From the NCBI GenBank assembly GCA_903887235.1, contig CAISOX010000053.1, positions 19,241-83,240 on the forward strand: a stretch of 64,000 nt of DNA, written 5' to 3'. Below the pieces are notes generated by a model. That model worked only from the letters and a program-made list of their open reading frames with translations. It did no database searches and was not told where the DNA came from. The stretch is from an uncultured Alphaproteobacteria bacterium (lineage in GTDB: Bacteria; Pseudomonadota; Alphaproteobacteria; Rickettsiales; Midichloriaceae). This document shows, one piece after another, positions 15,237-46,066 of the stretch; within the stretch, counting starts at the first letter, position 1, and every line of letters begins with the position of its first letter. Both the position numbers and the translations under genes were made by a program.

Positions 15237-17117
15237 ATGGTAAGAATTTTTATTAGTTGCTTTGTTTTAGTTTTTTTAAGCATAGATTCAAATGCGAGAT
15301 GGGCAACTTTACAGGATTCATCTATAAGAATAATTGAATCTAATGCCAATATCACAGTTAATAAAGACTATACTTATGAATCGACCATAGAATTTTTAGA
15401 CGAAATATTAAAAGAGCAAGGTAGACAAAATTACTCTAAATATACTTTTCAGTATGATATTAAGCGAGAAAAAATAGATATTTTGGAAGCTTATACAATT
15501 TTTGAAAACAAAAAATATATTGTAGGTGAAAGCGAAATAGAAAATAAACCACTTGCAAGTGAGGCTGATGCTCTTGCAGAATATGGGCAAATATCCATTG
15601 CATTTCCAAAAGTAGTAGTGGGTGCCAAAATATACCTTAAATACAGGAAAAAAGTGATAAATCCTTCTCCACCAGAATATTTCGATTATTTCCTTTCCTT
15701 CGGCGAAGGTGGTTATTCAGAAAATGATAATATAACAATAAATTCCGCAATTCCACTATATAGTTATGTTAATGATCCAAATAAGGTGCTTGAGGTTAAA
15801 AGCGATAACGAAAAAAATCAATTTACAAAAAAACTTATTATTAAACAAAAGAAACCATTTACTAGTGACTTAGTTGATGAGCCAAGTGAGGGAAGTATTA
15901 ACTCAAAATATCTTACCTGGGTTGCTATCACAAGTGAAGATACATGGCAAGGAATGCACAAAAAATTTATTGATAAGTATTTAAAAGCAATTAATCAGAA
16001 GTTACCTAGCGATTTTGAAAAAATTTATGAAAAGGCTAAGCAACAAAAAAGTGAGATTGAACAGATAAATTACATTACGCGTAGTTTAAATGACCAAATA
16101 CAATATTTAATGGACATGCGTACTATCTCTGGCAATGTTTTCCCCAGAGATTTAGAGGAGGTTGCTAAAACTCAATATGGTGATTGTAAGGATTTTTCAT
16201 TTGTAACGGGCGCAATACTTAAAAAACTTGGATATAACGTAGACATTACTATAGTTTACAGAGGTGAAATTTACCCAGAATTTAAATCTCCTATTCCAGA
16301 GTTGGCTTTTAATCATATGATGCTTAAGGTAAGTGGTAAAAGCGGCAATGTATATTGGTTGGATCCTACTAATTTTCAAAGTATGGCAAATGGTATATTT
16401 CCAGATGTTGCGGATAGGATGGCTTTAGTAATTTCTGAAAAAGAAGCTAAATATGAAAAAATACCTGAAATCGATCCGATTAAAGCTAATAATTCTATAA
16501 CTAAGGAATATTTGATTAATGAAGACGCTGTTAATGTTGTGTTTAATGCAAATTTGAGTGGGCAAAATTCTTGGCATTTCAGTGGTTTGGGGAAAATGTA
16601 TTCTAAAAGACGTTTAGAAGATACGTTTTTTATGCTTGCAAATGGTTATAAGATAGTTAGCCCAAAAGATAGAATAAGTTCAGAAATACCTAATTTAGAA
16701 TCAAGAATTGTTAAAGATGTAAAGTTTAAGGTTGAATATAAAACCGATGATTTATTATTTCACACAAATTTAGGAAAAGGATTAAAATTGAGATATCAAT
16801 TTTTGGAATTTGTTGCTGATACTATTGAGGATAATAAAATAGACTTTTATATAGGAACCCCCAGAGAGTATAGTATAAAAACCATTATAAAATCCAGATG
16901 CATAAAAAACACAAAAAGCCTTAATTTTGATATTGATACTCAATGGTTAAAATTAAACAGAACTGCAAAATGCATAAATGATGATACTATCGTAATCGAT
17001 AATGCGTTATTCAAAAAGTCCTTTATTAAAAATGAAGAAATTACAACAGATGAATTCAAAAAGTTAAAAAAGGCTATCAATGATAATTATATAGGTATGG
17101 CTGTTATTGTTGATTAA
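15237..17117 (+). CDS. Exported DUF3857/transglutaminase-like protein
   Basis: Signal-peptide-like N-terminus; GDCKDFS (Cys), FNHMML (His) and WLDPT (Asp) catalytic-triad motifs. Confidence 0.8.
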   Translation: MVRIFISCFVLVFLSIDSNARWATLQDSSIRIIESNANITVNKDYTYESTIEFLDEILKEQGRQNYSKYTFQYDIKREKIDILEAYTIFENKKYIVGESEIENKPLASEADALAEYGQISIAFPKVVVGAKIYLKYRKKVINPSPPEYFDYFLSFGEGGYSENDNITINSAIPLYSYVNDPNKVLEVKSDNEKNQFTKKLIIKQKKPFTSDLVDEPSEGSINSKYLTWVAITSEDTWQGMHKKFIDKYLKAINQKLPSDFEKIYEKAKQQKSEIEQINYITRSLNDQIQYLMDMRTISGNVFPRDLEEVAKTQYGDCKDFSFVTGAILKKLGYNVDITIVYRGEIYPEFKSPIPELAFNHMMLKVSGKSGNVYWLDPTNFQSMANGIFPDVADRMALVISEKEAKYEKIPEIDPIKANNSITKEYLINEDAVNVVFNANLSGQNSWHFSGLGKMYSKRRLEDTFFMLANGYKIVSPKDRISSEIPNLESRIVKDVKFKVEYKTDDLLFHTNLGKGLKLRYQFLEFVADTIEDNKIDFYIGTPREYSIKTIIKSRCIKNTKSLNFDIDTQWLKLNRTAKCINDDTIVIDNALFKKSFIKNEEITTDEFKKLKKAINDNYIGMAVIVD

Positions 17118-17121
17118 GATA

Positions 17122-17226
17122 ATAGCATAATTCAGCTAAGTATTGACATCGTCATTCTTCGCTTATGTAGGTTTTACTACACTTCGCTCATCACTCCTTG
17201 TCACTACCTATCTGACCTAAAGCTAT
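17122..17226. repeat. Dispersed ~105-bp palindromic element, copy 1
   Basis: About 92% identical to 45963-46066 (7 mismatches, 1 gap, 54-bp identical core). ATAGC...GCTAT termini and an internal TGTAG/CTACA hairpin. Confidence 0.9.
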
Positions 17227-17265
17227 AGCACTTTTACCCTTGTTTTTTGGGGACAGATTTCAATC

Positions 17266-17319
17266 TTAACGTAAATTTAACGTAACCTTAACATAATTGT
17301 AACATTTCATGTGTATAAT
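17266..17319 (+). promoter_or_regulatory. Tandem CtrA-like boxes plus a -10 element
   Basis: TTAAC at 17266, 17277 and 17288 and GTAAC at 17299 (11-bp period, i.e. overlapping TTAA-N7-TTAAC), then TATAAT at 17314-17319. Confidence 0.65.
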
Positions 17320-17386
17320 ACAAAAATAAGCCCAAAGTTAATAATGACCTTGGGTGAATTTAACAATATAAGTGAAGGTTTACATT

Positions 17387-18190
17387 ATGAGACATTATTA
17401 TAGCATTGCTAATTTTTTAGCAGGAATAGGAATAGAAATATATGATAATTATTTTTCTAGTTACGGCGAAACTTACCAACAGTTGCTTGGTGAGATGCTC
17501 GGATGGTCACAAGGTCATACCGGGGAAGTACAAGCAATATTTAATAACAATGTCCTGCCAGAACTTTTTGTAAATCAATGGGGAAATAATTTAACAAGAA
17601 CAATAGTTAAGCAGTTTAAGCATCAGTATATTGAGTATGAAAATGGTAATATTAAAGGGTGGAATGGTGATGCCGCAGCCATAATGCAGCACACATCTCT
17701 TTGGAATTTCATGAGTAAGTGGAATAATGTCGCAACAATCGTTGCAGGTGTAAGTGATGTAATATATCAATTAATAGATGATGGAATATTAGATGAAACA
17801 ACAGTTACAGAACTCACAAAAAAAGTAGGGCTAACAATAGGTGCAATAAACTTGGTGGCGATTATGGGGATGACATTGCTAATAGTCCCAGAAGCCATGG
17901 GTACAGTGCTTGTAACTTCAGCCTTTTCAACTGTAATAATTATCCTGGAAAGCCTAAACCTTTTGGAAGATGTAAAAATCAATCTAATGTATCAATTAGG
18001 AGTGGGTTTTTCTAAGTTATATAACTTGGATATTGAGATAACTGAATTATATAAAATTATTGATGATAGCAAGGTTGAGCAAGATACCATCTCAGTTATT
18101 ATCGAAGAAGTAGAAGTTAATAACTTGCAGGGTATAGTGACAGAGCTTAACACATCTTCATGGAGTGAGGATTTTGCAATTACCACATAA
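17387..18190 (+). CDS. Hypothetical protein with a central hydrophobic hairpin
   Basis: Long ORF with ATG 17387 preceded by GAAGG (the track starts at GTG 17372). About 45-aa hydrophobic stretch VGLTIGAINLVAIMGMTLLIVPEAMGTVLVTSAFSTVIIILESLNLL. Confidence 0.75.
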   Translation: MRHYYSIANFLAGIGIEIYDNYFSSYGETYQQLLGEMLGWSQGHTGEVQAIFNNNVLPELFVNQWGNNLTRTIVKQFKHQYIEYENGNIKGWNGDAAAIMQHTSLWNFMSKWNNVATIVAGVSDVIYQLIDDGILDETTVTELTKKVGLTIGAINLVAIMGMTLLIVPEAMGTVLVTSAFSTVIIILESLNLLEDVKINLMYQLGVGFSKLYNLDIEITELYKIIDDSKVEQDTISVIIEEVEVNNLQGIVTELNTSSWSEDFAITT

Positions 18191-45339: not shown

Positions 45340-45966
45340 ATGGATGTTTTAGACGAAATTAGGGATGAGGTTAATAAGGAAAGGTTTTATAATTTTCTTC
45401 AAAATTATGGAAAGTACGTTGCGATTTTTGTTTTAGCTACATTTATTTGTTTCATCATTTATTTTTGGTGGGATAAACACAAAAATAATGTGTTATTAGA
45501 GGAGGCTAGTGAATACGGAGACGCAATAGGCTCTCTTGATAAGGATAAAATTTCTAGACTAGAAAAGCTTAAAGTAGGCAAAACAGTATATTCGGATTTA
45601 GCGAAACTCCAATTGGGTGCGTATTATGCTATTAATAAGGATTTTAATCGTGCTATACATAATTATGAATTACTAATAGACTCAAAAAGTACAGATAAAA
45701 TTTATAGAGACTATGCAGAGTTGATGGTAATTAAGATGAAAATATCATCAGGGAAGATTAACTCAGAGGAAGGGATAGAAATGTATGAGAATTTTTATAA
45801 AAATGCAGAATATTTTAATAATATTGCAGTTTTGGGTGAATCAATATTGCTCATGAATAAAGGTGAAAAAGGTAAAGTTTCTTCTAAATTGAATGAAATA
45901 CTAACTGATAATGAATCTCCAAATCTGTTGATGTATCTTGCAAGAATGATAGATAAGAGGGTATAG
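45340..45966 (+). CDS. YfgM-like single-TM TPR protein (DUF2659-like)
   Basis: DEIRDEVNKER...YGKY, then a TM helix and TPR-like helices. Confidence 0.7.
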   Translation: MDVLDEIRDEVNKERFYNFLQNYGKYVAIFVLATFICFIIYFWWDKHKNNVLLEEASEYGDAIGSLDKDKISRLEKLKVGKTVYSDLAKLQLGAYYAINKDFNRAIHNYELLIDSKSTDKIYRDYAELMVIKMKISSGKINSEEGIEMYENFYKNAEYFNNIAVLGESILLMNKGEKGKVSSKLNEILTDNESPNLLMYLARMIDKRV

Positions 45967-46066
45967 CATAATTCAGATATGCATTGACATCGTCATTCTT
46001 CGCTTATGTAGGTTTTACTACACTTCGCTCATCACTTCTTGTCACTACATATCTGACTCAAGCTAT
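45963..46066. repeat. Dispersed ~105-bp palindromic element, copy 2
   Basis: GTATAGC...GCTATAC termini, TCAGATATG/CATATCTGA stem and a 54-bp core identical to 17142-17195. It overlaps the upstream gene's TAG. Confidence 0.9.

Follow-up and report, generated by a model that had tools for sequence, protein, structure and literature searches.

Tandem 11-bp units in place of a -35 element: a putative OmpR/PhoB-family operator that recurs in Candidatus Bandiella

Head-to-tail 11-bp repeats that abut a -10 element and replace the -35 are the hallmark of class II activation by regulators of the OmpR/PhoB family. In Bacillus subtilis, the repeats associated with PhoP follow the sequence TT(A/T/C)ACA with an 11-bp periodicity, and the element of PmrA is a tandem cTTAATatT-N2 repeat. 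The sites of OmpR and RpaB are phased at 10 bp; those for OmpR at ompF and ompC are located between -100 and -40, and the half-sites of the Escherichia coli protein read GTTACATATT and GAAACATCTA.

PHO boxes, more generally, are made of 11-nt direct repeat units (PMC4415409). SphR of the cyanobacterium Synechocystis depends on three or more tandem CTTAACCT boxes separated by 3-bp linkers, and the Pho box of E. coli is found 10 bp 5' of the -10 (PMC1906773). Control by winged-helix response regulators is also known for the Icm/Dot effectors of Legionella pneumophila and Coxiella, through PmrA and CpxR, and PmrA-type activation reaches dozens of scattered, lineage-specific host-interaction genes by means of an element whose spacing to the -10 is fixed (PMC6989116).

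The array and the orphan gene downstream

The window, by which we mean the whole 64,000-nt stretch of DNA that was analysed, corresponds to C53:19241-83240 in a genome of 1.6 Mb (31% G+C, 100% complete) that belongs to Candidatus Bandiella (Midichloriaceae, Rickettsiales). On its forward strand, an array of four head-to-tail 11-bp units, the putative operator, extends from 17266 to 17309, as seen by direct reading, Tandem Repeats Finder, shuffles and conservation. The units, all read directly on that strand, are TTAACGTAAAT (17266-17276), TTAACGTAACC (17277-17287), TTAACATAATT (17288-17298) and GTAACATTTCA (17299-17309), and they are followed at 17310-17319 by a 4-nt spacer, TGTG, and a -10 hexamer, TATAAT (17314-17319), with no -35. 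If the hexamer is set at -12 to -7, the KTAACn cores of the units fall at about -60, -49, -38 and -27. The first-pass annotation had described TTAAC at 17266, 17277 and 17288, GTAAC at 17299 and TATAAT at 17314 as sites phased on one helical face without a good -35, and this description holds in every part: the register is exactly 11 bp, and there is no usable hexamer at a workable -35 distance, as a KTAACn core taken for a -35 would leave a spacer of either 9 or 20 nt. It is because of the missing -35 that a simple sigma-70 scan makes no call for the promoter at 17314.

By Tandem Repeats Finder, the array has a period of 11 and spans 17265-17296. There is a single occurrence of the four-site pattern in the window, and 100 shuffles that preserve dinucleotides yielded no copy of it; TTAAC-N6-TTAAC was observed 3 times in the window against 0.38 expected. 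Based on the genome-wide frequency of TTAAC (5144 occurrences in 3.2 Mb, both strands), three such sites in phase are expected about 5e-4 times per 64-kb window, in agreement with the earlier rough estimate of one in 1000 windows. A position weight matrix for the promoter gives the locus 63 bits, whereas the best score in a Markov-1 random genome of equal size was 9.4. The conserved unit, KTAAC(G/A)TAA, takes up 9 of the 11 positions and is thus longer than a TTAA half-site. A search of the window against Rfam returned four tRNAs only, with no match at the locus, and a search of a plasmid collection with the locus returned no match.

Downstream of the array, on the same strand, translation of 17387-18190 gives a 267-aa membrane protein with a central two-lobed hydrophobic hairpin (...GLTIGAINLVAIMGMTLLIVPEAMGTVLVTSAFSTVIIILESL...), which matches no Pfam or NCBIfam family. 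A paralogue with 69% identity is encoded in the same genome (C109), and homologues with 30-48% identity were found in five other genomes of the genus and in none of 34 genomes outside it, so that this orphan is a member of a multi-copy family limited to the genus. The array also precedes the C109 paralogue (4 units), the orthologue in G004 (6 units) and the homologues in G002, G003 and G005, where the upstream neighbour is different; in G002 and G005, in fact, the array and the orphan gene stand after a fabF-like gene. The array is hence kept 5' of family members that share just 30-48% identity, in varied contexts.

At the window locus, the upstream neighbour (15237-17117, forward strand) encodes a 626-aa protein with DUF3857 and transglutaminase-like domains according to Pfam. 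Between its stop codon (17117) and the array, BLAST identified a dispersed palindromic repeat of 106 bp (17122-17227, no strand assigned), with 22 further matches in the genome at 86-97% identity, of which 19 are close to full length, and with a copy at about 45963-46066 of the window. This repeat is absent at the equivalent junction in the paralogous (L015) and orthologous (L010) loci; it is outside the operator and marks the operator's upstream limit. Since the sequence immediately 5' of unit 1, where the repeat element was inserted in the window, is otherwise unconserved, the functional element starts at 17266. In L015 (C109:5090-5310), the array is directly preceded by a duplicate of some 200 bp from the 3' end of the DUF3857 gene (window 16918-17117), and therefore the duplication unit included the tail of the neighbour.

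Judging from the promoter geometry, transcription would start about 7 nt past the -10, which gives a predicted 5' leader at 17326-17386 of the forward strand. Within this region, the conserved motif ATGACCTTGGGTGAA opens an upstream ORF of 19 codons by translation, MTLGEFNNISEGLHYETLL, that overlaps the start of the orphan gene (17344-17403, forward strand). The sequence ATGRCYTTRGGTRAA is present in 6 copies in the genome, each 20-85 nt 3' of an array promoter; the other copies are at C41:60171, C52:12819, C58:49842, C58:66377 and C109:5389. These copies open short ORFs (MTLGEF..., MALGKI..., MTLGKL...) with synonymous differences, and the motif could correspond to either a leader peptide or a binding site. 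A hairpin in the leader RNA (CCCAAAG...CCTTGGG) was also considered and set aside, as RNAalifold gave it -0.92 kcal/mol and zero compensatory pairs, which is weak support.

Recurrence of the promoter within the genus

Such arrays proved to recur genome-wide. Scanning the whole source genome with patterns and with position weight matrices returned seven full arrays with a -10 (C41:60082, C52:12738, C53:36506, which is the window locus, C58:49733, C84:5522, C108:1961 and C109:5311) and four two-unit versions (C58:66308, C105:18370, C111:18918 and C10:7890), all of one geometry. The promoters score between 13 and 64 bits, compared to the random-genome maximum of 9.4. Not all of these are independent, as the C53, C109 and C41 arrays are paralogous duplicates. 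When the seven available Bandiella genomes are taken together, 21 promoters could be tabulated, with 2-6 units of KTAAC(G/A)TAAnn; the register is exactly 11 bp in 19 of them, the proximal unit starts 15 nt 5' of the -10 in all 21, and a -35 is present in none. The -10 hexamer is TATAAT, TACAAT, TATACT or TATTAT. Units also differ by position, the distal ones reading TTAACGTAAnn, the penultimate KTAACnTAATT and the proximal GTAACAyTTCA, and every array with a -10 is co-directional with a downstream gene or short transcript.

The strict three-unit pattern is restricted to the genus and one sister genus among the 41 relatives scanned, and a reversed-pattern control gave no match in any of the 41 genomes. 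With a looser pattern, G022 and G038 also yielded arrays, whose geometry is the same; one of these precedes a protein with RTX repeats, identified by eye. Two arrays of 3-4 units lack the proximal unit and the -10, one in the source genome (C97:33297-33334) and one in G004 (C1:176943-176969, L117); they look like decayed or interrupted promoters.

One could see in these repeats a functionless 11-bp minisatellite, which the first-pass annotation had kept as its fallback in a degenerate form, or a scar of duplication carried along with a duplicated gene cassette. The number of units does vary (2-6), the C53, C109, C41 and G004 copies share promoter and leader through duplication, and the arrays at C97:33297-33334 and G004:176943 have no -10. 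However, the array is borne by at least six unrelated downstream genes, 19 of the 21 promoters keep the exact register to the -10, those with a -10 always run with the downstream feature, the types of unit depend on their position, and the array is kept across seven species, also between species whose target proteins are 30-48% identical. Position, register and orientation that are conserved across species speak against the fallback, which we consider wrong, and a repeat devoid of function is in our opinion very improbable.

Besides the 267-aa protein, the genes driven by arrays include orphans of 186, 254, 275 and 1014 aa, an operon whose second gene matches the Surface_Ag_2 and OMP beta-barrel families and, in G003, a gene for an ankyrin-repeat protein. 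The C58:66308 promoter lies directly 3' of virB10 (TrbI family) and of a virB11-type ATPase gene; the source genome has two virB4 genes. The promoters on C10 and C111, both two-unit versions, run into convergent genes and appear to drive transcripts of about 80 nt; the two regions (C10:7890-8020 and C111:18918-19030) have in common AGATAAGGAGAGATTATCT and a GGGG...CCCC hairpin, and the transcripts may be paralogous small RNAs of one regulon. No phosphate gene is found among the Bandiella targets, made of orphans, the ankyrin protein, the outer-membrane protein and short transcripts, and phmmer queries with PstS, Na/Pi, Pit and phosphoesterase sequences matched none of the ORFs in the source genome. 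With its orphans, outer-membrane protein, ankyrin protein and virB neighbourhood, the regulon therefore looks like host-interaction cargo.

What would read the array

The first-pass annotation took the units for CtrA boxes, through which CtrA~P would control the orphan as a cell-cycle or infectious-stage gene. In terms of letters, this is correct: TTAA-N7-TTAA(C) fits at 17266-17281, 17277-17292 and 17288-17303, and the resemblance comes from the fact that relatives with ctrA carry TTAA-N7-TTAAC at their ctrA loci, as exemplified by TTAATAGTATATTAAC located 50 nt 5' of ctrA in G036. The 11-bp phasing and a reader of the same protein family are further points of likeness with the CtrA boxes of Caulobacter and the Anaplasmataceae. 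However, ctrA itself was not found in the source genome, where the highest score for the CtrA model NF045991 was 134.5 bits, obtained by a protein that scores 258.6 bits against the PhoB model. A profile search with NF045991 found ctrA in none of the seven Bandiella genomes (103-142 bits), two of which are assembled into one and two contigs, respectively, whereas the gene was readily detected in 20 of 34 other Rickettsiales relatives (282-423 bits) and in a Caulobacter control, which scored above the cut-off. None of the four histidine kinases identified by their HisKA match is CckA-like, as none fits a hybrid kinase family. Furthermore, positions 6-9 (GTAA) of the Bandiella units, which would belong to the CtrA spacer, are conserved, unlike the N7 of CtrA sites. 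The usual arrangement of CtrA sites differs from three to six tandem units abutting a -10, and the Bandiella units are longer and more numerous. Because ctrA is absent from the genus, the CtrA reading is refuted, and we regard it as extremely improbable; a different regulator of the OmpR/PhoB type would have to read the array. The structural intuition behind the earlier claim was nonetheless sound, as CtrA belongs to the OmpR/PhoB winged-helix family, and what survives of it is the probable regulation of the orphan through the array, which replaces the -35 and recurs 5' of lineage-specific genes. As for the distribution of ctrA in the order, the gene is absent from 12 of 18 other Midichloriaceae genera sampled and present in 14 of 16 genomes of other families.

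We favor, with a probability of roughly 75%, the reading that the array serves as operator to an activator-dependent promoter of the sigma-70 type that lacks a -35, with a reader of the OmpR/PhoB family, and that it belongs to a genus-wide regulon. Winged-helix monomers of this family would bind the 11-bp direct repeats head-to-tail, one per helical turn; the proximal copies would occupy the place of the -35 and bring RNA polymerase to the TATAAT at 17314, by class II activation as at Pho-box promoters. Given that the sites stand in for the -35 at a promoter whose -10 is good, the orphan would depend on an activator and be co-regulated with other lineage-specific genes. The promoter in the window would then be one member of a regulon, common to the genus, that drives lineage-specific and probably host-interaction genes, including the orphan two-lobed-hairpin membrane protein.

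The closest likeness is to the Pho boxes of PhoB, PhoP and SphR (CTGTCATAWAW x2 in E. coli). These too are head-to-tail 11-bp repeats with 6-9 conserved positions, in at least three units on the coding strand, placed directly 5' of the -10 where a -35 would be, and the core of the Bandiella unit, cTTAAC(G/A)T, is nearly identical to the SphR box. At least two 11-nt units with a core of 6-8 nt are found head-to-tail both at the locus (4 units) and in the family (2-6), on the coding strand, 5' of the -10 and in place of the -35, close to the distance of about 10 bp seen for Pho boxes. There are differences as well: the 8-bp core ends about 8 nt 5' of the -10 in Bandiella as opposed to 10, a conserved TAA extends the unit to 9 positions, none of the targets is a phosphate-acquisition gene (pst, pho, pit, ugp), PstS and PhoU are missing from the genus and a canonical PhoR from the source genome, and the PhoB-like protein of Bandiella falls below the equivalog cut-off.

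We also searched for KTAACRTAA-N2-KTAACRTAA-N2-KTAAC in 185,579 species, one genome each, and found 92 arrays in many phyla. Among 60 ORFs downstream of these arrays were six Na/Pi cotransporters, four of them with a PhoU domain, and one each of a PstS-like protein, a PHO4 transporter, a phosphoesterase and an OmpR-type regulator; the same motif thus stands 5' of Na/Pi, PstS and Pit genes in other phyla. Among the 86 arrays that lie outside the Midichloriaceae, hexamers of the -10 type are over-represented at offsets of 15, 26 and 37 relative to the last unit, a register of 15 + 11k that is the same as in Bandiella. Phosphate genes downstream, together with the shared -10 register, therefore indicate that the motif behaves as a Pho-box type across bacteria. 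One Elusimicrobiota genome, JBDRON01, has more than 10 arrays of TTAACATAAnn x3-4 followed by NNNG and TATACT, in a geometry identical to that of Bandiella, located 5' of large signal-peptide proteins without a Pfam family (loci L023, L030, L032, L039, L046, L070, L072, L076, L093, L098 and L110). At the pstS and phoB loci of 15 Rickettsiales relatives, where start calls are unreliable, the only common sequence was TTAATCAATTATTAATCA near pstS, in two families; it forms an identical 18-nt direct repeat in L157 (2560-2590, G030) and L161 (732-765, G029), a possible local form of the Pho box that lies in an ambiguous orientation with respect to pstS.

The source genome encodes three proteins with an OmpR-type DNA-binding domain (Trans_reg_C). 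Since a (G/T)TAAC(A) core is generic for the OmpR family (GTTACA for OmpR, TTAAC for CtrA, and RpaB), the sequence alone cannot name the reader among them, nor did phylogenetic profiling of the three regulators against the presence of arrays discriminate among the candidates. The best candidate is a PhoB-like response regulator of 233 aa encoded at C58:59927-60628, to which we would assign the role with a likelihood somewhat short of even; the other two are live rivals. In its favor are the Pho-box grammar of the arrays, the link of the motif to phosphate genes in other phyla, a canonical RTVDVHIxRLR recognition helix (QRTVDVHITRLRKAI) and the fact that its best match is the PhoB model TIGR02154. 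That match, however, reaches 258.6 bits, below the cut-off of 296.2, and the protein, present in five or six of the seven genomes of the genus, could not be detected in G002, a genome that is 90% complete and does have arrays. The absence of phosphate genes among the targets also weighs against this candidate, as does that of the sensory partners: a Pfam search found PhoU in none of the seven genomes of the genus, no kinase in the source genome reaches the cut-off of the PhoR model, and PstS is absent from the 24 Midichloriaceae genomes sampled, with the exception of one fragment in G001. With neither PstS nor PhoU in the genus and no canonical PhoR in the source genome, any PhoB-like control would be a rewired one. 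Lastly, PhoB-like proteins, like the OmpR-like ones, are widespread in the family, whereas the arrays are almost confined to one genus. We note separately that most of the Midichloriaceae genomes sampled have retained a PhoB-like response regulator in spite of the loss of PstS, that is, a Pho regulator without its sensing module.

Alternatively, the reader could be the OmpR-like regulator of 220 aa (C10:8808-9470), which would relay an envelope- or osmolarity-type signal from an EnvZ partner to surface or host-interaction genes. This protein is present in all seven Bandiella genomes, including G002 with its arrays and no detectable PhoB-like gene; the gene for an EnvZ-like kinase (191 bits) lies on its contig at a distance of 7 kb, one of the target operons encodes an outer-membrane protein, and the unit GTAACATAAT resembles the OmpR half-sites of E. 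coli. The OmpR sites F1-F3 and C1-C3 of ompF and ompC are similar to our arrays in that up to six monomer sites with a G(T/A)(T/A)ACAT core stand in tandem at a weak promoter, and in that an EnvZ/OmpR pair is encoded in the source genome. Nevertheless, half-sites phased at 10 bp, as in an OmpR operator or in RpaB sites, are not found here, where the period is strictly 11 bp throughout and the array lies against the -10; in other phyla the identical three-unit motif accompanies phosphate transporter genes, and the OmpR-like regulator also occurs in sister genera without such arrays. We hence find this assignment unlikely.

The third protein (C80:22851-23411, 187 aa) has a winged-helix Trans_reg_C domain and a degenerate receiver domain, and would act as an atypical, probably phosphorylation-independent factor of the OmpR family, of the ChxR/HP1043 type. 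Its conservation in all seven genomes of the genus, G002 included (55-95% identity), is the best fit to the nearly genus-restricted distribution of the arrays, and its homologues elsewhere are distant (45% identity at most). Yet nothing links this protein to the array motif, many relatives without arrays encode weak homologues of it, its own gene has no array upstream, and the motif and geometry shared across phyla argue for a widely distributed regulator, which makes it a rather improbable reader.

Autoregulation was considered for all three, and no array is found 5' of the genes for the PhoB-like regulator, the OmpR-like regulator (with gatC) or the 187-aa protein. A two-unit promoter does lie 900 bp 5' of the OmpR-like gene; it runs into a convergent, ruvX-like gene and therefore cannot be the promoter of the OmpR-like gene. 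The four histidine kinases in the source genome are NtrY-like, EnvZ-like, fused to a solute symporter, and divergent; the fusion (C97:21024-23765, 914 aa) joins a sodium/solute symporter domain to the kinase, and is a possible partner for an orphan response regulator.

A regulon of lineage-specific genes in uncultured symbionts

About a dozen lineage-specific genes in Candidatus Bandiella stand behind a recurrent promoter that appears to be activator-dependent. What is new here, compared to the systems described above, is the lineage, the regulon made of orphan genes and the joint absence of CtrA, PstS, PhoU and a canonical PhoR. We tentatively propose, as a joint claim that as a whole is doubtful, that Candidatus Bandiella lost both CtrA and the Pst/PhoU machinery for sensing phosphate, and that an orphaned PhoB-type regulator kept the Pho-box grammar and was rewired to switch on fast-evolving host-interaction genes, among them Inc-like hairpin membrane proteins, ankyrin and helical-repeat proteins, an outer-membrane antigen, the virB11 neighbour and possibly small RNAs. 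Should the reader indeed be PhoB-like, this would be a clear case of a nutrient regulator rewired after the loss of its sensory partners.

In its targets (the ankyrin protein, the virB10-virB11 neighbour and the Inc-like membrane proteins, in a genome with a type IV secretion system), the regulon is reminiscent of that of PmrA. It differs from it in that Bandiella, an endosymbiont from the Alphaproteobacteria, has a secretion system of the rvh type instead of Dot/Icm, and in that the arrays reach six units. If our proposal is true, it would represent a Rickettsiales counterpart of Legionella PmrA, and the arrays would provide a ready means to predict secreted effectors in a symbiont that cannot be cultivated.

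The Midichloriaceae are symbionts of ciliates and other aquatic hosts and are not culturable, and to our knowledge their gene regulation is essentially unstudied. A promoter grammar as sharply defined as this one (13-64 bits against a random maximum of 9) offers a computational handle on a co-regulated set of genes, almost all of them orphans, that looks like a host-interaction repertoire. The case also illustrates that a literal match to the CtrA consensus is no evidence for control by CtrA. The loss of ctrA in the Midichloriaceae is a notable loss of the alphaproteobacterial master regulator, and its extension to this whole genus and to many sister genera bears on how these Rickettsiales run their cell cycle.
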